From a virus, in IMG/VR virus record IMGVR_UViG_3300044970_001297, positions 1 through 64,000 of that record: a DNA stretch of 64,000 nt. One strand, written 5' to 3'. Position 1 is the first letter of the stretch; the number at the start of each line of letters is the position of its first letter. The notes below the pieces were generated by a model that saw only the letters and a list, made by a program, of their open reading frames with translations, did no database searches and had not been told where the DNA came from. The position numbers and the translations under genes were made by a program. Shown here piece by piece: positions 4,549 to 15,800 of this stretch.

Positions 4549-6045
4549 ATGGGCGTTCAAATCAAAGGTGGAAATAATACGGCTGGTCTTGCAAATGTGA
4601 GTTCGACATACGAGTTGCAAGTAGTGACTCCACAGGTTGAGGAAAATGCAGGATTTGTCCAGTTGAGTACGGAAGTGGATCCTGGCGATGTGTTGGGAAC
4701 TCGCACCGTGATTCCTCCTGAATGTTCCGATGACTATCGTCTTCGTGTCGGTATTGACCAGACAATGTTCAATACAACCTTTGAAGGAACCGTCATTCTC
4801 ACGACCACATGGTCGCAGTTGCTCACCACAATGACAACCGCACAAGCCAGCGGATTCATGGTTCTAAACAACGGTACATCGACCACATCAGGACATGCCG
4901 CTTATGTTCGTTCACATAGACATTTCTCGACATTCGGAACCTATCCCACCTATGTGGACATGTGGATTCGCGAGACGAATCACACTTCCACGAACTCCGT
5001 CAGCGAATGGGGATTGCTGTATCTTACGGCACAAGCCACAGCGCAACCCATCGACGGTATTTTCTTCCGTCGTATTGCGGGTGGCACCCTGAAGGCAATT
5101 GTCACGAATAACTCTACAGATGTTGCTGATGTCACCATCACCACGACAAATGTTCCTGCGCGTGACGGTGTTGGTACATTTGATCCAACCGAATCCAATC
5201 ACTATCTGATTGTATTCCACAATGATATAGTCCGCTTCTGGATTAATGATGTGCTTGTTGCCGAGATCCCATGCCCCGCTGCACAGGCACAGTTCTCTGC
5301 ATCATCTGGAAATCCTGTTGGATTCCGTGTGGTCAACACTGGTACCGCATCCGCTGCTCGTCAACTTTCGGTTGGTTATGTGAATGTTGGATTTGGTGAT
5401 CAGAATACAAACAAGCCTTGGGCGCATGTTCTGTGTGGTTTGGGCAACGGAGCATATCAGTTCGCAAATGGCAATACGCCAGGACCAACAGTGACCCGCG
5501 CTGGTGCCACATATGGACACCCTGCAAGTGCAACTGCTCGTACTGCTGGTACATGGACCGCAACATCTGCTCCTGCTCTCAATAACCTTGGTGGTCTATG
5601 GACATCTCCTGCGATATCCACACTTACTTCAGACGCTGACTATCCAGTGTTTGCATTTCAGAATCCAACAGGAACTGCCACACTTCCTGGAAAAACTTTA
5701 TACATCACAGGTATTCGTGTTGGAGAAGCATATGTTTCCGCTGCGGCTTCAACCAACTCTATTTTACTATCATACATTGTGATGGTTGGCAGCAGTGCGG
5801 TTGCCACAAGTACAGCAGATGCTGCAACAACTGTTTCGGGAAAATCCATCACGGTGGGCGGACATGGGTTTTTAGCAACTGAAGCAACAGGAAGTTATAA
5901 GCCTGGATTCGAAGTGCAATTTAATTCGCCATTGATGGTTCCGGCAGGACACTACTTCCACTTTGTCGTGCGTCCATTTGGAACCGTGACATCCAACACT
6001 CTTGTGGTCACAAGCAGCCTCGCAGTAAACGGATATTTTGAATAA
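4549..6045 (+). CDS. putative virion/receptor-binding beta-sandwich protein (paralogue A)
   Basis: 498 aa with good SD (AAGGAG); colinear along its length with 6347..7852. Confidence 0.6.
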   Translation: MGVQIKGGNNTAGLANVSSTYELQVVTPQVEENAGFVQLSTEVDPGDVLGTRTVIPPECSDDYRLRVGIDQTMFNTTFEGTVILTTTWSQLLTTMTTAQASGFMVLNNGTSTTSGHAAYVRSHRHFSTFGTYPTYVDMWIRETNHTSTNSVSEWGLLYLTAQATAQPIDGIFFRRIAGGTLKAIVTNNSTDVADVTITTTNVPARDGVGTFDPTESNHYLIVFHNDIVRFWINDVLVAEIPCPAAQAQFSASSGNPVGFRVVNTGTASAARQLSVGYVNVGFGDQNTNKPWAHVLCGLGNGAYQFANGNTPGPTVTRAGATYGHPASATARTAGTWTATSAPALNNLGGLWTSPAISTLTSDADYPVFAFQNPTGTATLPGKTLYITGIRVGEAYVSAAASTNSILLSYIVMVGSSAVATSTADAATTVSGKSITVGGHGFLATEATGSYKPGFEVQFNSPLMVPAGHYFHFVVRPFGTVTSNTLVVTSSLAVNGYFE

Positions 6046-6346: not shown

Positions 6347-7852
6347 ATGGGCGTAAAGATTACAAGCGGAAACAGTTCGATTGACTTGGTGGATTTGGAT
6401 TCATATCACCAACTCAAGGTGGTGACACCCCAAGACGGAGTGACTGCTGGATTTGCTAGTTTGAGTGCAGAAATAGATCCTGGTAGCATTCTCGGTTCGC
6501 GTAGTTTAAAAGCCATTGAGTCTTCTGATGATTACCGCGTTCGTGTGGGAACCGACCAAACTGTCTTCAATGCGACATTCGAAGGAACCACAATACTCAG
6601 TACACATTTCAGTACTGCCACAACAACTACTGGTGCTGTACAGGCTAACGGATTTCTTACGGTCAATTCTGCTGCGGCTGCTTCGATGATACAAAGCGGT
6701 GCTGCTGCATATGTCAGAACATGGAGAACTTTTCCTACATTCGGAACCTATCCTCTCTATGTGGATATGTGGATTTCCGAAGGTGGACCTCTAGCGGTGA
6801 ATGCAATAAGCGAATGGGGATTGTTATATCTTACGACACAAGCCACACAACAACCGCTTGATGGAATCTTTTTCAGACGCATTTCGGGTGGTCAACTGAA
6901 GGGCATCATCACAAGCAACACAATTGATATTACAGAAATAACATTAGACACACGCAATGTTCCTTCCCGAGATGGTTACGGCTCGTATGAGCCAGTAGAA
7001 ATGAACCACTACCTCATCACGGTTGACAACAATATTGTGAACTTCTGGATCAATGATGTACTCGTAGGAAGCATTCGATGTCCATCATCGCAGTCACAGT
7101 TTGCCAGTGCATCGGCTTTGCCTGTCGGATTCCGAGTGGTGAATATAGCAGTTGCATCGGCTGCTCGACAAATCAATGTCGGTTGTGTGAATGTTGGCTT
7201 TGGTGATCAGAACACAGATAAGCCTTGGTCAGATACAATGGTAGGAAGCGGTGCTGGAGCATACCAACTACAGATTGGAAACACGCCAGGACCAACGGTG
7301 ACTCGCGCTTCTGCTTCCACGGGACACCCTGCAAGTGGAACCGCTCGTACCGCTGGTACATGGACTGCCACATCTGCTCCAGCATTGAACAACTTGGGTG
7401 GGTTGTGGACATCTCCTGCCATCTCCACCCTGACATCCAGTGCGGACTATCCAGTGTTTGCATTTCAGAATCCAGCAGGATCCGCTACGCGACCAGGCAA
7501 AACCCTATACATCACGGGTGTTCGCATTGGAGACACAGTTCCATCCGTCGTAGCAGCAACCAATCCCATCTTCATATCATATATTGTGATGGTTGGTGGC
7601 AGTGCTGCCGCAACCAATACGGGAGATGCGGCAACGACCGTTTCTGGCAAATCCATTGTAATCGGTGGTCATGGGTTTATATCAACTGAAGCGGTTGGTA
7701 GCCACAAACCAGGATTTGAAATGAATTTTACATCTCCGCTCATGGTTCCTGCGGGACACTTCATCAGTTTGATAGTGCGTCCATTTGGAACCGTGACTGG
7801 CAACACGATGGTGTTGCGCGGAAGCGTTTTTTTCAATGGATATTTTGAGTGA
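6347..7852 (+). CDS. putative virion/receptor-binding beta-sandwich protein (paralogue B)
   Basis: Shares long identical blocks with 4549..6045 (e.g. TARTAGTWTATSAPALNNLGGLWTSPAISTLTS) and ends NGYFE. Confidence 0.6.
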   Translation: MGVKITSGNSSIDLVDLDSYHQLKVVTPQDGVTAGFASLSAEIDPGSILGSRSLKAIESSDDYRVRVGTDQTVFNATFEGTTILSTHFSTATTTTGAVQANGFLTVNSAAAASMIQSGAAAYVRTWRTFPTFGTYPLYVDMWISEGGPLAVNAISEWGLLYLTTQATQQPLDGIFFRRISGGQLKGIITSNTIDITEITLDTRNVPSRDGYGSYEPVEMNHYLITVDNNIVNFWINDVLVGSIRCPSSQSQFASASALPVGFRVVNIAVASAARQINVGCVNVGFGDQNTDKPWSDTMVGSGAGAYQLQIGNTPGPTVTRASASTGHPASGTARTAGTWTATSAPALNNLGGLWTSPAISTLTSSADYPVFAFQNPAGSATRPGKTLYITGVRIGDTVPSVVAATNPIFISYIVMVGGSAAATNTGDAATTVSGKSIVIGGHGFISTEAVGSHKPGFEMNFTSPLMVPAGHFISLIVRPFGTVTGNTMVLRGSVFFNGYFE

Positions 7853-7977
7853 CGCTATAATAATCAAACACAACAAGCGTTTGAAGTATCCTAAAAACAA
7901 TCTATAAAGCAATATTTTAGTATGCTTGAATCCAAGTGGATTCGGTGTACGATATCCATCGCTCAACGCTAAATAGA

Positions 7978-8022
7978 CATATCGGAGATTATATATAAAT
8001 GAGATAAACCCCCGATATGGAG
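7978..8022 (+). promoter_or_regulatory. late promoter (TATAAAT) inside a hairpin that abuts the SD of the first homing endonuclease gene
   Basis: CATATCGG (7978-7985) pairs with CCGATATG (8012-8019); SD GGAG at 8019-8022; TATAAAT at 7994-8000 in the loop. Confidence 0.6.
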
Positions 8023-8029
8023 TTGATGA

Positions 8030-8599
8030 ATGGAACCGACATATAAAGGATCATCTTGGTTGAACAGAGAAGTTGGCAACTACACAATCATTGGTATCGG
8101 AGATAAAATAAAATATCCAAGTCAGAAAGATCCGACTCAGATGTGGAAAGTTAGATGCAAGTGTGGGAAAGAAAAACAGATCAGCAAGTGGCATTTGATC
8201 TACGGAAATATTGCAGGATGCTCGGATTGCATCGGTGAGAGAAATAGATTTGAAAAAAGTCCAAATTGGAATTCCAGTGCAAAGAATGTTACTGGAATGT
8301 ATTTTGCGAAGATTAAAAAGTGTGCTGAAAAGCGTAATATCCCCTTTGAACTCTCCAGAGAAGAACTTGATTCAATATTTCAAAAACAGAATGGTCTATG
8401 TCGATACACCAAGATGGAACTTTTATTTGAATCTCATGGATGCAAAGGTACAGCGTCTCTTGATCGGATAGATAGTTCTCTCGGGTACACCAAAGACAAT
8501 GTTCAATGGGTTCATAAGGATGTGAACACGATCAAATGGGATCTTTCACATGATCAGTTTGTAAAACTTTGTAAGACTATAACGGAGAATTTTGAATGA
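8030..8599 (+). CDS. free-standing HNH-type homing endonuclease
   Basis: 'W-VRC-CG' and 'GCSDC' Zn motifs; 'TASLDRIDSSLGYTKDNVQWVHKDVNTIK' HNH-like core; AT-rich; overlaps the nrdJ start. Confidence 0.8.
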   Translation: MEPTYKGSSWLNREVGNYTIIGIGDKIKYPSQKDPTQMWKVRCKCGKEKQISKWHLIYGNIAGCSDCIGERNRFEKSPNWNSSAKNVTGMYFAKIKKCAEKRNIPFELSREELDSIFQKQNGLCRYTKMELLFESHGCKGTASLDRIDSSLGYTKDNVQWVHKDVNTIKWDLSHDQFVKLCKTITENFE

Positions 8600-10560
8600 G
8601 TGACAAGAAAACCCTTCCTACTTCCTACCAACACTTTATTTTTATCTCTAGGTACTCAAGATGGCTAGAAAAGGAGGGTAGGCGAGAGACATGGGAAGAG
8701 ACTGTGGAACGCTACTTCAAGTTCTTCGATGAACATCTTGCGAACAATAGGAAATACAACCTTGATCCTGCGCTTCGTCAGGAACTCAAGACCGCTGTCC
8801 TCAACCTTGAGATCATGCCTTCCATGCGTTCTCTCATGACCGCAGGAGAAGCACTCAAGCGAGACAATACCGCTGGCTACAACTGTTCATATGTTGCCGT
8901 AAACCGTGTCCGTGCATTCGATGAGATCCTCTACATATTGATGTGCGGCACAGGCGTAGGCTTTTCTGTGGAGAGGCAATATGTCGAGAAACTTCCTACA
9001 ATCGCTGAAGCATTCACTGACTCTGATACCACGATTGTGGTGCAGGATTCGAAGGCGGGTTGGGCAAAGGCTTTCAGGGAACTCGTCTCTCTTCTTATTG
9101 GAGGTCAAGTACCCCAATGGGATCTGTCAAAGATTCGTCCTGCGGGAGCAAGACTTAAGACTTTTGGAGGTCGCGCGAGTGGACCAAAGCCATTGGAGGA
9201 TCTGTTTAGATTCACCGTTGACACCTTTAGAAGAGCAGCAGGGCGGAAACTCACTAGCATCGAATGCCATGATATCGTCTGCAAGGTTGCGGAGATTGTC
9301 GTCGTCGGAGGAGTACGACGCTCTGCTCTTATCTCGCTTTCAAACCTGACTGACGAGAGAATGCGCGATGCAAAGACAGGTGCATGGTGGAACGACAATC
9401 CACAACGCGCACTTGCAAACAACTCAGTTGCATACAAGGAGAAGCCCGAGATCGGCGTGTTCATGGACGAGTGGGTTTCCCTCTACAAGTCCAAGAGCGG
9501 AGAGCGTGGAATCTTCAATCGTGCGGCAGCACAAAAGACCGTTGCGAAGTTGGGTGATCGTCGCGATCCAAACTACGAGTTTGGAACGAATCCATGCAGC
9601 GAGATCATCCTTCGTGATTGCGAGTTCTGCAACCTCACGGAAGTCGTTGTTCGCCCTGAAGACACTTACGAATCACTCCGTCGCAAGGTTAAACTTGCAT
9701 CTATTCTGGGAACATGGCAAGCATCGCTGACTCATTTCCCATACCTCTCATCGTCATGGCAGAGGAACTGCGAGGAGGAGGCACTCCTTGGTGTATCGCT
9801 CACAGGCATCCTTGACAACAAGATGATGCGTGGTGAGGATGGTTCACTGGAAAACATCCTCACGGGTTTGAGAGTTGAAGCAGAAGAGACAAACAAGGCT
9901 TGGGCAGCAAACATTGGAATCAATCCTGCTGCGGCAATCACATGCGTCAAGCCGAGTGGAACTGTGTCTCAGTTGACCGATTCGGCATCGGGTATCCATC
10001 CTCGCCACAACGAGTACTACATCCGTACCGTTCGTGCGGATCGCAAGGATCCACTATGTCAGATGATGATCGACATGGGATTCCCCGCAGAGCCTTGTGT
10101 GATGAAGCCAGACCACACGATGGTCTTCTCGTTCCCAATGAAGGCAGAGGGTTCCGTGACACGCAACGACCTGACTGCAATCGAACATCTTCAGTTGTGG
10201 CTTGAGTATCAGCGTCATTGGTGCGAACACAAGCCATCAATCACCATCACCGTGCGCGAGCATGAGTGGATGGAGGTCGGCGCATTCGTCTATCGACACT
10301 TCGATGAGATCAGCGGCATTTCCTTCTTGCCCATGGACTTGGGTACATACCGACAGGCTCCTTATCAAGATTGCACTAAGGCTCAATATGAAGACCTTCT
10401 TGCAAAGATGCCAACGGGCGTTGATTGGGCAACATTAAAGCAGTATGAGAAACAGGATAATACTGCTAGTTCTCAATCATTCGCTTGTTCGGCTGGATCG
10501 TGTGAATTGGTAGATATAACATCCGATTCCGACAAGACCGCATTTCCCACACAGAGATAA
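8596..10560 (+). CDS. nrdJ: class II (adenosylcobalamin-dependent) ribonucleotide reductase
   Basis: 'YNCSY', 'GTGVGFSV', 'VVVGGVRRSALISL', 'GTNPCSEI', 'CNLTEV', 'TCVKPSGTVSQL', C-terminal 'ACSAGSCE'; no beta subunit nearby. Confidence 0.95.
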   Translation: MSDKKTLPTSYQHFIFISRYSRWLEKEGRRETWEETVERYFKFFDEHLANNRKYNLDPALRQELKTAVLNLEIMPSMRSLMTAGEALKRDNTAGYNCSYVAVNRVRAFDEILYILMCGTGVGFSVERQYVEKLPTIAEAFTDSDTTIVVQDSKAGWAKAFRELVSLLIGGQVPQWDLSKIRPAGARLKTFGGRASGPKPLEDLFRFTVDTFRRAAGRKLTSIECHDIVCKVAEIVVVGGVRRSALISLSNLTDERMRDAKTGAWWNDNPQRALANNSVAYKEKPEIGVFMDEWVSLYKSKSGERGIFNRAAAQKTVAKLGDRRDPNYEFGTNPCSEIILRDCEFCNLTEVVVRPEDTYESLRRKVKLASILGTWQASLTHFPYLSSSWQRNCEEEALLGVSLTGILDNKMMRGEDGSLENILTGLRVEAEETNKAWAANIGINPAAAITCVKPSGTVSQLTDSASGIHPRHNEYYIRTVRADRKDPLCQMMIDMGFPAEPCVMKPDHTMVFSFPMKAEGSVTRNDLTAIEHLQLWLEYQRHWCEHKPSITITVREHEWMEVGAFVYRHFDEISGISFLPMDLGTYRQAPYQDCTKAQYEDLLAKMPTGVDWATLKQYEKQDNTASSQSFACSAGSCELVDITSDSDKTAFPTQR

Positions 10561-10588
10561 ATATGTTTATACATATCTGTGTGGGAGG
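10545..10588 (+). promoter_or_regulatory. SD-sequestering hairpin with late promoter(s) in the loop (second HEG)
   Basis: TCCCACACAGA (10545-10555) pairs with TCTGTGTGGGA (10576-10586), covering SD GGGAGG; the loop contains ATAAATA and TATACATA. Confidence 0.7.
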
Positions 10589-10595
10589 ATAGTAA

Positions 10596-11249
10596 ATGCG
10601 TAAAATAAGAACTTGTTGGGAAGAGAAAAAGCCTCTGTGCTTGTATAAAGGCGAAAGTCTTCTGAATAAGCAGATAAATGATTGGAAAATTCTTGGATAC
10701 CATTCAACCAAAGAAAAACCCAGTGGGTCGAGGGTAGATTGGTTGTGTCAATGTATGAATTGTGGCATGGAAAAACCTATTCCAATGTACAATGTAATTT
10801 CTGGCAGAAGTAAAATGTGCTTTTTGTGTGCAAATAAAGATAGGCATGGAGAAAAAAATCACAATTGGAAGGGTACAGGGTGTATACCATCTAGTGTAAT
10901 AACATCCATAAAAAATAGTGCTAAGTGTCGAAACATACCAATGGAAGTTACTCCTGAATATTTGAATACAATATGGGACGAGCAAAAACATAAATGTGCT
11001 TTGACTGGACTGGATTTGATTATGAAAGCAAAATCGAAAACCGATACACCTTGGTCAAATACAGCGTCTTTGGACAGAAAAAACTCATCCGTTGGTTATG
11101 TGATTGGAAATGTTCGATGGGTTCATCCAGTCATCAATATGATGAAAAATCATTTTAGCGACGAAACATTTATTTCTATGTGTAATAGAGTTACAAGTTG
11201 GGTTGCTTGCTCTGGTGACAAGTGTGAAATCGTGGATCTTACAAACTAA
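10596..11249 (+). CDS. HNH-type homing endonuclease fused to a duplicated NrdJ C-terminal tail
   Basis: 'WLCQCMNCG', 'CFLC', 'TASLDRKNSSVGYVIGNVRWVHPVINMMK'; ends ACSGDKCEIVDLTN, matching NrdJ ACSAGSCELVDIT. Confidence 0.8.
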   Translation: MRKIRTCWEEKKPLCLYKGESLLNKQINDWKILGYHSTKEKPSGSRVDWLCQCMNCGMEKPIPMYNVISGRSKMCFLCANKDRHGEKNHNWKGTGCIPSSVITSIKNSAKCRNIPMEVTPEYLNTIWDEQKHKCALTGLDLIMKAKSKTDTPWSNTASLDRKNSSVGYVIGNVRWVHPVINMMKNHFSDETFISMCNRVTSWVACSGDKCEIVDLTN

Positions 11250-11263
11250 CAAAGGGAGAGACA

Positions 11264-12808
11264 ATGTCAATAGCAGACAAACTCGCAAAACTACTCAATG
11301 ATTGGGGAAAGACCCTGTCCATCTATGACCTGAATAAGGACAACATCGTGGATGCAACGGATCTTTCCATGCTTCTATCGGGATATGATCCCGAGGTCAT
11401 CGACCCCGATCCAATTGGAACACCAGATGATCCTGGGTACGATGCAACGGCAGTTGCTCGTTGGACATGTGTGCCATTCAGGGAGATCAAGCAGACCGCG
11501 AAGATCGGTGTTGCCGCATTCCACATGAATGGAATCGACAGGGTCGAGTTCTCCGTGAACAAGGGAGCATGGCAAGTAGTTCGTGAGCCAGCACTCAACA
11601 CCGACAATGGAGTCGTGGAGTACTTCATTGAAATCGATCCATCGCAGCACGAAGACGGAACCGTGGAGATCTACGCGGTTGCCTATCCAAGAATAGGCAT
11701 TCCACGGGTTCTACAAGGAAACTTCAACAACTCCTTTGTTGGTGGAGAGAACTCCCTAAAGATTCGCAATGGAATCCATTCGATGTTCGTCGTGTGCAAC
11801 GCAAACGGGACATTGAAGAATTGGGATGTATATGCATCTCCCGTTGGAAACGACGATACTGGCGACGGAACCAAGGCAAATCCATACAAGACGATTGCAG
11901 GAGCCTTGAGCGCACAGACCGCAATTCATGGCGACTGCGATGGACTCACCCTCTATCTTGAGGAGGGAGACTACGACTATGTCGGACCAAAGTTCCCCAA
12001 GAAGGTCGTGACGAAGAACAGATATGCCACCGTCTGCTCTGCTCCTGGCACGAACCGCGAGAATGTCCGCATCGTCATGGCAACAACAGGTGGGTTGGCA
12101 ACCAAGTTCATCTGCATGAGAAATCTCCTGTTCGTTGGAAATGTCAAGATGCGTACCCCGAACATGGATTCGTTTGCATGGATCGATGGGTGCAAGGCAA
12201 CGGCAGCAAGCCATGAGATCGGTGGTGGATTCGCATCGGGTGCATGGTCGATGGTTGCATTCACCAACTGCGAGGCTTACAATGTCAGGGATTGCTTCAG
12301 GAGCGGAAACCTTGCGGTGAACTGCTCTGGCAGAAAGTTCAGCGATACGCCACTTGGTCAGGACTGCGTCGTGATCAACTGCTCGTTCGATGAATTCATC
12401 CGCAACTCAAACGGAGATCATGCGGATGTGTTCCACTGGTTCTACACGAAGCCTGGATATCGCGAGAACAGGCTGATCTATGGACTTGATGTGAGGAACT
12501 TCTCGTTGCAGGGTTGGCAAGTGAATCCCATACGCGGCGGTGGGCAGCAACTCGACAATGTCGCTCTTGTCGATGTGAGGATCAGCAAGGACATCTCCAA
12601 TGTCGCTGGTTCGTGGTGGTACATGGACACCAACCATCTGTACATGAAGAATGTCAACCTTGTCGATCAGACCTTGCGTTGGAAGGTGCATGGTCAGGAT
12701 GAGGATGGAAAGATGGTTCTTCGGAATGTCGTGCTTGAGGATTCCAACTTCAGATCGATGACATGGCTTCCAGCGGAAGTCATCTTGAAGAACACCACCA
12801 TCGGGTGA
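11264..12808 (+). CDS. dockerin/EF-hand-like N-terminus plus DUF1565-like motif and parallel beta-helix (polysaccharide-binding/lyase-like) protein
   Basis: 'YDLNKDNIVDATDLSMLL'; 'YASPVGNDDTGDGTKANPYKTIAGAL'; 'GDHADVFH'. Confidence 0.55.
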   Translation: MSIADKLAKLLNDWGKTLSIYDLNKDNIVDATDLSMLLSGYDPEVIDPDPIGTPDDPGYDATAVARWTCVPFREIKQTAKIGVAAFHMNGIDRVEFSVNKGAWQVVREPALNTDNGVVEYFIEIDPSQHEDGTVEIYAVAYPRIGIPRVLQGNFNNSFVGGENSLKIRNGIHSMFVVCNANGTLKNWDVYASPVGNDDTGDGTKANPYKTIAGALSAQTAIHGDCDGLTLYLEEGDYDYVGPKFPKKVVTKNRYATVCSAPGTNRENVRIVMATTGGLATKFICMRNLLFVGNVKMRTPNMDSFAWIDGCKATAASHEIGGGFASGAWSMVAFTNCEAYNVRDCFRSGNLAVNCSGRKFSDTPLGQDCVVINCSFDEFIRNSNGDHADVFHWFYTKPGYRENRLIYGLDVRNFSLQGWQVNPIRGGGQQLDNVALVDVRISKDISNVAGSWWYMDTNHLYMKNVNLVDQTLRWKVHGQDEDGKMVLRNVVLEDSNFRSMTWLPAEVILKNTTIG

Positions 12809-12849
12809 TACATATTCACAGATTCCCTTGAGATAGCATCTCTTGGCCG

Positions 12850-12880
12850 ACAACCTCCAGAAATGGGGGTTGTTTCTTTT
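12850..12880. terminator. intrinsic (probably bidirectional) terminator between convergent genes
   Basis: ACAACCTC-CAGAAATG-GGGGTTGT followed by TTCTTTT. Confidence 0.6.
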
Positions 12881-15800
12881 ACGGATTCTCCAGAGTCTTG
12901 TACTTTATGTGGAGTATCGGCAGATGAGACACATTCTCAATTGTTATTGAGGTCAATTCATCTTGATTTTCTGGTGTTATGTCTCTGCTCAACTCAAGAT
13001 ACTGATACTCTGTCCCATTGGTAGCACCAAATTTGGTGTTTGATGGAGTGTCCGATTCTATTCCATCCTGCACAGAAAGAACCTTGTATATTCCATCATT
13101 TGAGGAAGAACCAATTATGCGAATATATGAACCAGCCGCTATGTCAAGGTTATTGGATCCTCCAAACAATCTTTTAGTTATCGATGAGTTCACTCTAAAA
13201 GCAAGTAGGTTCTTTGTTCCGACATTTGCAGGAACCTTCAAGCGAAGTGCCATTTTTTGATTTGGATTAATCTTGGGTTTTCCAACACCAGATGTCTCAG
13301 GTCCACCACACAATGTTGTCTTTGCCGGATTTCCAGTATGGAAGTATGGGTTGTCATTGAGTATGCCGCTGAATAAAGCAGAGGGATTTAGCGTGGTTGA
13401 AAGAATAAAACCACCAAATCCTAAACTGCTGTTATAAGAGAAAGAATATGATTGAGATGTACAAGACACAATATTTGGTATTGTGAGATCTGAAGGTAAA
13501 CTTTTTGATGCTGTGGTTATTTCACCATATTCATTGACCGTGAGGGTGACTCCAGAAGTAGCGGACAAAGAAACCAGTGTGCTTATGAAATTGTTCATAG
13601 CCGCCGTTCTGGTAGAGGACCCATTTAGCAATATGGTTGCAGTATTTCCACTACTTGAGGTAAACCTAAAATCTTGTATTGCGGCAAAATCAAAGGCGGC
13701 TGCATCTGCATTGACATACAGGTGGTGTGGATGCTTTCTAAAGGATATTACGGTTGTTGATAATGGTGCTACTGAAGATGGACTTTCCTTGCTGTTGAAA
13801 GCAATGTAGGAATTGCTCTTGTAGAACTCATCAAGCACCCCGGGGGTGTCGTTTCCATAGATGGTCTTGAACTCTCCATGCTCCACCGAAGGATCGCATT
13901 GACCATGCATGATGAGGCTCATTGTCTGACCAGCATTTGCCTTGCCAAGTTGCATGAAGTCCTTGACCTGTGTGGTGACATTCAAATCGTTTCTTGAGCC
14001 AATGCCTGTCTCTTGCAGGGTGTAGTTCCTGTTCGCAAACTGTTCCGATATGATGAATACTCCACCACCAGACGATCCGTCGATCTCGTCTTGAGTGGAT
14101 GGGCCGATCTCATCATTGTTTTCGGGATTGCTATATGAAGGTATATTACCCATTATGTTTGGTATTTTGAGAATATTGTCATCTGGGTAGATTCCATCCC
14201 CACTATGCCCATCAAATCCATTCTTTGTCATCCAAGTGACATTTTCGGTCAAGTCCGTTGTGGATAGATTTATGGTTATGGGGTGGTTTGGAATCGGTGG
14301 TGGGTTAGGTATTATTCCATCCACTGGTGCTGGTATCCAAAATTCAGCCAATCTGTTTTCAAGTTCTTCAATTGTTGTATTAACAGTGATGGGTGGTATT
14401 GAATATGGTAGTCGTGTTCCAATTTCGCTTGGAATTGGTGTCCCATCCCACGCTGTTATACCCTCTTTGATCGTAAAATCTCCATTTTCATAATCTACAA
14501 ATAATCTAGGATAGATCGCCGCATTTCTCATCAGTGAAAATATCTCCCCTTGTTCCGGAGTGGGGAAGGTTTGACCCTCAAGGGCTGGTGGGTATCCTGC
14601 TAGTAGGGGCCAATTTATTCTTGCAAGTTCGCTGTTAGTTCTAGGTCTATACAAAGGATCATTGTTGATTAGATATGTGCTGGTTTCTGCGTATGGATAC
14701 TTTATCGCGCCGTTGGCATCCCGATCTGGCTGATATAAATTTGGAGCAATATTGTTGTGCCAATTTGGTAATCCATCATTATTCAAATAATTGTGCGAGA
14801 AATATGTGTAAAATTCACCAGATGGTCCACGAAATTTGTTTGCAATATCAATGAACTCCTGCGGCATAGTGACACTAGAATTTCCAACAAACACATTATA
14901 TGAGTTTCCACTTGCCGGTGATGCAGTTTGTACATCCATCCAATCCGACAAATACATCATAACATTGTTTCGGAAAATATATTTTGTGGTATCCCACCAA
15001 AGCCAGTCTGCCGGTCCATTGAGTTGGTAAACCTTGGGTTTTCCTTCCGTATTATTGATGCCAAATGTATTATTTTTGCATATTAAGCCGGTGGGTGAAT
15101 CTGTATTTCTAAAGGCGTTTGAGAATCCCGACCGCGCAACCATATTATTGATAAATTTGCATGGAACAGAGCCTGGTGTAGCATCAAGAAAGTTAAGTGC
15201 CAAACCAATAAGACTTGGTGTGTGAAAATAGCAGTCTCGCACCTCAACATCGCTTGAATTTTCATAAATCGCAAGAGCATCTCCATGTGCCACTCGTCCA
15301 ATAGTGTACACTTTGTTTGCAATTGCTCTAACTCCCTTGGAGTTGGATAAGTAAAGTGCAGCACCCCTCCTATGATTTATTGATATATTGTTGTAGAATA
15401 ATGCTGGTTGATTAAAAGGCCAGGTAGGATGACCCATGTTATCCATGCGCCTTGATATTGTAAAAGCGCGATCATCACCCCTCAATCCCAAATTGTTGGA
15501 TGCTTCGACTTTTCCATAGCCATCAAGAAGAATACAAGCCTCGTTCAATGTATCGGAGATAAGATTACAACTCAATTTTACATTTACTGGTCCTTTGGAA
15601 TTCTCAGCAACGGAAGCGTTATTATTAACAATGGCTGGTCTCGCACCCACCATACAAAAACCCACCACATTAACATTTTTTGTAAAGTTTACATTATTTG
15701 ATCCTTCTGGATTGGTAATAACCATAGAACCACTAGTGCTGTGTTGTTTTATCAAAAATGCATGCATATTCGTCTCAGACGAAAAAACTTTTGGACTGCT

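Follow-up and report, generated by a model that had tools for sequence, protein, structure and literature searches.

What allows a homing endonuclease gene (HEG) to end in the last codons of another gene, while that gene keeps a complete end of its own? The question is raised by the nrdJ locus in the first 64,000 nucleotides (positions 1 to 64,000, hereafter the window) of the IMG/VR virus record IMGVR_UViG_3300044970_001297. nrdJ, which encodes a class II ribonucleotide reductase (RNR), is followed here by a HEG whose open reading frame (ORF) closes with a second NrdJ-type tail. The source record is 92.8 kb long, is estimated to be ~53% complete, and carries a T4 gp32-type single-stranded DNA-binding protein gene as well as tail-fibre genes; the host of the element is a large uncultured tailed phage. 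The arrangement is probably the product of a homing cassette that brought a spare nrdJ end into the gene and left the native tail on the HEG as a by-product. The features on which the argument depends are listed below, with the basis of each assignment.

8596-10560, plus strand: nrdJ, class II (B12-type) RNR, 654 aa (PHROG, Pfam, identity to phage NrdJ proteins)
10330-10524, plus strand: foreign (co-converted) 3′ tract of nrdJ, including its own tail, tail A (drop in identity to the close relative L001, drop in GC content, peptide)
10525-10560, plus strand: C-terminal extension of NrdJ, 12 codons plus stop (comparison of nrdJ alleles)
10539-10600, plus strand: RNA hairpin before the HEG (folding, -25.3 kcal/mol, z -5.9)
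10596-11202, plus strand: HEG core; predicted beta/zinc-ribbon region in the N-terminal part, putative beta-beta-alpha-metal nuclease motif in the C-terminal part (PHROG, structural model)
11203-11249, plus strand: tail B, the displaced native 3′ end of nrdJ, 15 codons plus native stop (38 of 40 nt shared with L001)

Two nrdJ tails in two reading frames

The nrdJ product matched phrog_367 with an E-value of 4e-190, the Pfam RNR barrel, RNR-II insertion and alpha domains (PF02867, PF21995 and PF17975) were found over their cut-offs, and annotated phage NrdJ proteins are 62-64% identical to it. The RNR barrel, the class II insertion domain and the C-terminal cysteine pair identify it as a class II enzyme, with B12 dependence predicted from its family. 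The C-x4-C tail is conserved among relatives. A megablast search of window positions 8000-11300 against GenBank phages returned no matches.

Tail A reads ACSAGSCELVDIT at 10483-10524, with Cys-x4-Cys intact, and is followed by the extra codons SDSDKTAFPTQR before the nrdJ stop. The HEG ORF (10596-11249, 217 aa) starts 35 bases past the nrdJ end in a different frame, and its C-terminus consists of tail B, ACSGDKCEIVDLTN plus stop (11205-11249), read in the frame of the HEG itself. The two tails share 27 of 39 nucleotides, and the distance from the start of one to the start of the other, 722 nt, is not a multiple of three. The right junction splits a valine codon, G|TT, at a position where relatives have TTT, encoding phenylalanine. 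Both ORFs were confirmed, and the second NrdJ-type tail that the original prediction had noticed in frame at the end of the HEG is real.

Phage RNR genes often host introns and inteins (PMC3653736), and the HEG could accordingly be imagined within a group I or II intron or an intein, with tail B forming the genuine final exon or extein of nrdJ. However, nrdJ has a complete tail and stop of its own, the 722-nt spacing, together with a stop and a frame change between the two ORFs, speaks against splicing, and no Rfam intron family was found in 7800-13000 even at E<=1, so that the probability of this arrangement is practically negligible. The sole Rfam match at that threshold, a snoRNA inside nrdJ, was spurious.

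Tail B is the original end of nrdJ

The tails were compared with those of 80 IMG/VR loci whose NrdJ proteins are 77-93% identical to that of the window, 78 of them with a complete 3′ end. A [ST]GDK tail, with the stop 2-5 codons past V-D, was present in 72 of these 78; the remainder carried SADG, SANS or SAGA tails (n=2 each). A 12-13-residue extension after VD was confined to the two SAGA alleles, whereas the other 76 have 2-5 residues. The original prediction had proposed the 3′ ends of HEG-less relatives as a check, and these proved to be tails of the ACSGDKC type and not of the ACSAGSC type. The tail B peptide is the exact NrdJ ending of the three closest relatives (L001, L002 and L003). 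At the nucleotide level, window 11203-11242 matches the L001 nrdJ 3′ end at 38 of 40 positions (blastn E 3e-12), and the best matches of tail B among all loci were L001 (36/39), L002 (35/39) and L003 (35/39), compared with 26/39 for tail A against L001. These values came from an ungapped comparison, whose register breaks in relatives with indels; the best-match order was used, and the rank correlation between tail identity and identity of the nrdJ body was discarded. The likeness of tail B to an NrdJ end is not due to chance, because it is evident both in the nucleotide match to L001 and in the protein match to 72 of the 78 relatives.

The body of nrdJ tells the complementary story. Identity to L001 is ~92% up to ~10329 and then drops sharply to ~62%, as far as 10515, and the GC content of the gene falls from 0.52 to 0.44-0.47 in the same foreign tract, the peptide of which resembles HEG-bearing nrdJ alleles. 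A drop of this kind, reaching up to the cassette, is the mark of co-conversion of foreign flank in the target gene. The drop in identity, the drop in GC content and the match of tail B to relatives therefore establish tail B as the original nrdJ end of this lineage; tail A and the ~65 codons upstream of it arrived with the nuclease gene. Two proposals of the original prediction are thereby borne out, namely that the HEG was inserted ahead of the nrdJ stop, with the original tail now fused to it, and that the insertion supplied a diverged replacement 3′ end. A third, that the native tail of HEG-less relatives would be followed directly by the gene at 11264, held for the tail; the gene itself was not directly next, and the order was approximated in L008 and L009, in which a 40%-identical homologue of that gene lies ~165 nt past nrdJ.

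A clade of endonucleases that exchange their tails

A protein search recovered five further clusters, 67-73% identical to the window HEG over the full length, all of which end in an NrdJ-type tail. In a tree built on the tail-trimmed core, the six tail-ending clusters are monophyletic (UFboot 98, SH-aLRT 93), and 20 of 20 member sequences carry the tail in frame, with both cysteines and E-x-V-D-L kept. The original prediction had named unrelated homologues natively ending in CxxxxC as a reason for doubt; HEGs outside this one clade were found to end without a Cys motif. A single window would be compatible with a one-off scar of illegitimate recombination, or with loss of the HEG stop through faulty assembly. 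This highly improbable explanation is refuted by recurrence: the identical HEG protein was found on 11 contigs, the fusion is present in nineteen further sequences from the six clusters, and the DNA of L171 (P0005) has the same two-tail layout as the window, with the HEG ORF between the copies.

The tails do not follow the proteins to which they are attached. Within one cluster (>=90% identity) the same junction leads into either a TAGS-type or a GDK-type tail. P0004 and P0006 have cores that are 86% identical and tails that agree at 8/14 positions, whereas P0001 and P0003 have cores that are 72% identical and tails that agree at 12/14, and P0035 closes with 20 residues identical to the NrdJ ending of L003. 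Between the two tails of L171, 10 of the differences are synonymous and 1 is non-synonymous. Since tail types swap among near-identical HEGs, the tails derive from the invaded genomes, and both the intact Cys motif and the near-synonymous differences in L171 can be understood from the origin of the tails as functional nrdJ ends that were displaced only recently. Conservation of the cysteine pair would then need no selection on the nuclease, as tail swapping may suffice to explain it.

The same observations bear on a function of the tail at the protein level. In such a case, the NrdJ tail would serve the nuclease as a redox switch, as a handle for thioredoxin, glutaredoxin or NrdJ, or as a trans-acting reductant, the last in a variant in which the tail of NrdJ itself is hindered by the 12-residue extension. 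Retention of both cysteines and E-x-V-D-L in every member, preservation of the frame at three or more junction lengths and the excess of synonymous differences in L171 are all in its favor. However, the swapping of tails and the 95% nucleotide identity of tail B to the local nrdJ lineage mark the tails as recently displaced nrdJ ends, sister HEG clades work without a tail, NrdJ retains its own Cys pair, and the tail was modeled at a pLDDT of ~58. Neither thioredoxin (PF00085) nor glutaredoxin (PF00462) was detected in the 92.8-kb record, which is ~53% complete; in several roseophage relatives, a glutaredoxin gene adjoins nrdJ according to their annotations. A protein-level role is thus unlikely, and the suggestions of the original prediction that the nuclease is redox-tagged, docks on NrdJ or complements the tail in trans found no support, near-identical HEGs differing in their tails and similarity of tail being decoupled from similarity of HEG. 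A slim chance is left for co-option, in which selected read-through would couple the activity or stability of the nuclease to the redox state of thioredoxin or NrdJ or tether the HEG to NrdJ. In a milder form, the clade would have evolved a self-contained cassette that has both homology arms within nrdJ and an ORF ending in the arm, adapted to spread among phages without shared downstream synteny.

Gain and loss of the element in relatives

Related HEG loci were recovered from IMG/VR and JGI metagenomes with a narrower alignment (A2); a search with the single HEG protein found none, and a broad alignment (A1) returned distant HNH genes only. L018 and L163-165 carry the HEG, as does the window, and 78 of the 80 nrdJ relatives lack it. 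Without exception, the related HEGs recovered follow immediately on an nrdJ allele that has both an extension and a C-[ST]-[AG]-G-[AS]-C tail. The extensions of HEG-bearing alleles are 11-15 residues long, mostly ending in F/L-P-x-x-R, and were found exclusively in alleles that carry this HEG or have lost it (L041). Most of the related HEGs have a native end, 3-14 residues past the conserved core, without a Cys motif. In L069-71, a conserved terminator element comes after the nrdJ stop; in L173, this element directly succeeds the HEG stop, and tail-less HEGs therefore sit at the nrdJ stop codon. A relic of the native tail was sought downstream of the tail-less HEGs, and none was found.

Close relatives thus differ in the presence of the element at one fixed site, and they include a clean deletion. 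L041 carries an L173-like allele from which the HEG was cleanly removed, except for its final two codons, and in which the extension is retained; the deletion (L041:6900-7010 compared with L173:3927-4640) runs from just past the extension stop to those two codons, and the left flank is 94% identical. The HEG-bearing loci and the L041 deletion therefore make both invasion and loss of the HEG visible.

The NrdJ extension and an RNA hairpin

The hairpin at 10539-10600 was not matched in stability by any of 200 shuffled sequences. Its inner stem (10545-10555 paired with 10576-10586) covers the Shine-Dalgarno sequence GGGAGGA (10583-10589), and its outer stem pairs the AUG at 10596. The 5′ arm is formed by the F-P-T-Q codons of the NrdJ extension, and the 3′ arm includes the Shine-Dalgarno sequence; it is most likely this RNA element, and not a function of the protein, that accounts for the conserved extension peptide. 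The loop contains TATACATA (10568-10575), a box resembling a late promoter, and a TATA[ACT]AT[ACT] box occupies the same loop position in 7 of 7 cassettes examined. Comparable hairpins were predicted in L166 (strong, z -9.4) and in L171 and L173 (moderate). By its predicted fold, the window has the T4-type sequestration of Shine-Dalgarno sequence and start codon, a feature that varies among relatives. Because the ribosome-binding site (RBS) is sequestered, HEG translation is probably low.

This has a bearing on whether read-through into tail B is kept for the sake of translation, either for the termination context at the native stop or coupling to the gene at 11264, or simply for the supply of a stop. 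The stop at 11247-11249 is indeed native and lies 2 nt before the RBS of that gene, AAGGGAGAG (11252-11260; ATG at 11264), and the frame is preserved in all junction types. Yet the genes after nrdJ vary among relatives, so a common coupled partner is lacking, translation of the HEG is probably low, and a stop is easily gained, one alternative frame at the junction terminating within 4 codons. We consider this translational explanation quite unlikely.

The endonuclease

The HEG product matched phrog_3322 (1e-22), phrog_1035 (7e-22) and phrog_3118 (2e-9), which are annotated as endonuclease, endonuclease VII and HNH endonuclease. Its core is AT-rich (GC 0.34-0.39). The AlphaFold model has a pLDDT of 84, with tail B modeled at low confidence, and contains a strand-strand-helix unit at residues 158-186, where the motif invariant in the family in alignment A1, S-L-D-R-x-[DN] ... 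G-N-V-x-W-V-H ... N, is located. Foldseek matches to the PDB were weak, with the PacI HNH domain best (E 5.6e-3), followed by the Gme HNH, the Cas9 HNH and T4 Endo VII.

A proposed homing-cassette mechanism

The favored account is that of a homing cassette, in which the nuclease most likely acquired its tail as a by-product of element copying and not as a new function. The cassette would comprise a foreign nrdJ 3′ end (~65 codons, with Cys-x4-Cys intact), the 12-codon extension, the hairpin with its box, and a HEG ORF without a stop codon of its own, the ancestral element having presumably lost the HEG stop and come to end inside nrdJ. The enzyme would cut HEG-less nrdJ alleles near the tail codons, and repair would copy the cassette out of the donor phage, with the left crossover in the nrdJ body (~10329 in the window) and the right crossover within the tail codons of the recipient (from 11203 in the window). 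The native tail of the recipient would persist as the final 15 codons of the HEG ORF and provide its stop, and NrdJ function would be kept because the cassette carries a spare tail. Tail B may double as the right-hand homology arm, which would permit spread between phages that share only nrdJ. On transcripts that read through from nrdJ, the hairpin would hide the RBS and start codon of the HEG, and transcripts from the box in the loop would expose the start, as in T4-type late expression.

Several observations weigh against this account. DNA context among the other tail-fused members comes from L171 alone. The downstream, tail B position can likewise hold a TAG[SA]- or AG[AS]-type tail (P0002, P0036 and P0005, the last at L171:959-1000), and the change from GDK to AGS is therefore not simply the resistance change. 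Such endings imply that nrdJ lineages exist with a native TAG[SA]-type tail and a normal stop, and they show that an AG[AS] tail alone is no marker of HEG immunity. At least three junction types occur in the clade (~15, ~21 and ~26 residues retained), all in frame. If they had independent origins, the chance of this is ~(1/3)^2 to (1/3)^3 (p 0.04-0.1), weak evidence that read-through may matter, whether through the peptide or because translation then terminates at the native stop. L164 and L172 have a weak hairpin or none, and the TATA[ACT]AT[ACT] box is not enriched across the window. As for the enzyme, Pfam yielded no matches for the HEG even at E<=10, and no HNH model; at D160-R161, an arginine stands at the usual position of the first histidine of HNH enzymes, and nuclease activity is assumed from the signatures of mobility. 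We infer cleavage, the target site, the basis of immunity, the timing of expression and the tail's lack of a role for the nuclease.

The upstream cassette and neighboring genes

The surroundings of nrdJ contribute three further features.

7980-8613, plus strand: upstream, paralogous HEG cassette, with an ORF at 8030-8599 (189 aa) that is 34% identical to the downstream HEG
11264-12808, plus strand: 514-aa gene, tail-protein-like by weak matches; variable cargo between nrdJ and the terminator
12849-12880, plus strand: intrinsic-terminator-like stem-loop within a conserved 56-nt element (comparison with L002, L004 and L173)

The upstream cassette is missing from L001 and L003, and a 66%-identical homologue occupies the same site in L012. 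It lies ~40 nt before the nrdJ start and replaces ~50 nt, including the nrdJ RBS and the first ~6 codons, such that the upstream HEG stop overlaps the nrdJ ATG. Its hairpin is weaker (z -1.4), with a TATATAAAT box. The GC content of both HEG cassettes is 0.34-0.41 versus ~0.52. nrdJ thus has a HEG cassette on either side.

The 514-aa gene is outside the mobile element. The conserved 56-nt terminator element occupies 12825-12880 in the window, 6911-6981 in L002 and 5806-5861 in L004; it abuts the nrdJ stop in L002 and L004 and lies 1.6 kb farther on in the window. Relatives carry different cargo genes in the interval that separates nrdJ from this element, and the interval is thus a variable hot spot. 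Upstream of nrdJ, part of a 501-aa gene (6347-7852), window 7042-7806, matches L001:2219-2983 with 73% nucleotide identity; the matched segment is a second region, upstream of the L001 orthologue of that gene. Together with a 498-aa ORF at 4549-6045, this suggests tandem paralogues.

Comparison with known systems

The closest known case, in both architecture and identity pattern, is that of the fungal mitochondrial mORF gene hybrids, described for atp6 of Allomyces macrogynus, for atp6, atp9, cox2 and nad3 of Glomus sp., for atp9 of Rhizopus and for cox2 of Mortierella (PMC3630166). There too, the order is host core, in-phase foreign C-terminus, endonuclease ORF and displaced native C-terminus, and the native copy is nearer to relatives, at 91-98% identity compared with 64-81% for the inserted copy (PMC3630166). 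The corresponding values here are 95% and ~62-69%, and the host gene is likewise intact. The nrdJ element shares the in-phase, more diverged inserted C-terminus and the ORF between the two C-terminal copies. It differs in residing in a phage and not in an organelle, and in encoding an HNH-like enzyme and not a LAGLIDADG or GIY-YIG one. Unlike in the fungal hybrids, moreover, the displaced tail is translated as the endonuclease C-terminus throughout a clade and is exchanged among near-identical HEGs, and the cassette carries a predicted T4-style translational control. The element therefore works like a mORF hybrid, yet stands outside those element families.

Among phages, HEGs at nrd genes either split the gene or are intergenic, without a replacement end (PMC2988022, PMC3653736). 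mobE lies between nrdA and nrdB in T4 and splits nrdA in Aeromonas phage Aeh1 (PMC2988022, PMC2790892). These are free-standing HNH-type HEGs at RNR genes with co-conversion of flanks; the nrdJ element, with its HNH-like enzyme, resembles them in this. The Aeh1 mobE also has a hairpin that sequesters its RBS and encloses a late promoter, where the nrdJ cassette has its late-promoter-like box. The same combination is known from I-TevI, I-TevII, I-TevIII and segB, and these hairpins block translation on read-through transcripts and allow it on late transcripts that start inside (PMC2988022). In contrast to nrdJ, however, the insertion in Aeh1 divides nrdA into two functional parts and duplicates nothing, T4 mobE lies between genes, and neither mobE brings a replacement gene end or carries the C-terminus of its target; the target here is, in addition, a class II nrdJ. 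The DHHRN family, to which F-CphI of cyanophage S-PM2 belongs, is characterized by DHDH flanked by Cx2-4C and Cx2C, plus a conserved R and N (PMC6083498). F-CphI resembles the present HEG in being a free-standing phage HEG beside an essential gene, and one PHROG match of the HEG carries the annotation 'endonuclease VII'. Membership in this family was rejected; the defining DHDH motif is absent from the invariant columns of alignment A1.

A different parallel is offered by tRNA genes. Prophages and islands that insert into tRNA genes bring with them a replacement 3′ end of the target gene. As at nrdJ, the element's own 3′ copy restores the gene, and the original 3′ end remains beyond the element as a diverged direct repeat. 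These elements nevertheless rely on site-specific integrases and att sites rather than on gene conversion induced by a break, and the relic is not known to be read as part of a protein of the element. A phage HEG ending in the displaced C-terminus of its target was not found in the literature searched, an absence that is not proof.

Implications

The nrdJ locus preserves a natural record of one homing event, complete with the left crossover, the foreign gene end, the element, the right junction and the leftover tail of the recipient. It indicates that phage HEGs can use the solution known from fungal mitochondria, in which a spare gene end lets an essential gene survive an internal insertion, and that a whole clade of HEGs borrows the last codons and the stop of its target, swapping them on moving. 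For annotation, this means that such ORFs are chimeric and that no new domain should be read into the NrdJ extension. The case is relevant to the reading of recombination boundaries in phage genomes, and thus to homing endonucleases and phage mosaicism in general. The family provides candidate site-specific nucleases with a predicted target in the nrdJ tail codons. If the tail indeed acts as the right-hand homology arm, this would explain the spread of the HEG among phages with nothing but the target gene in common.

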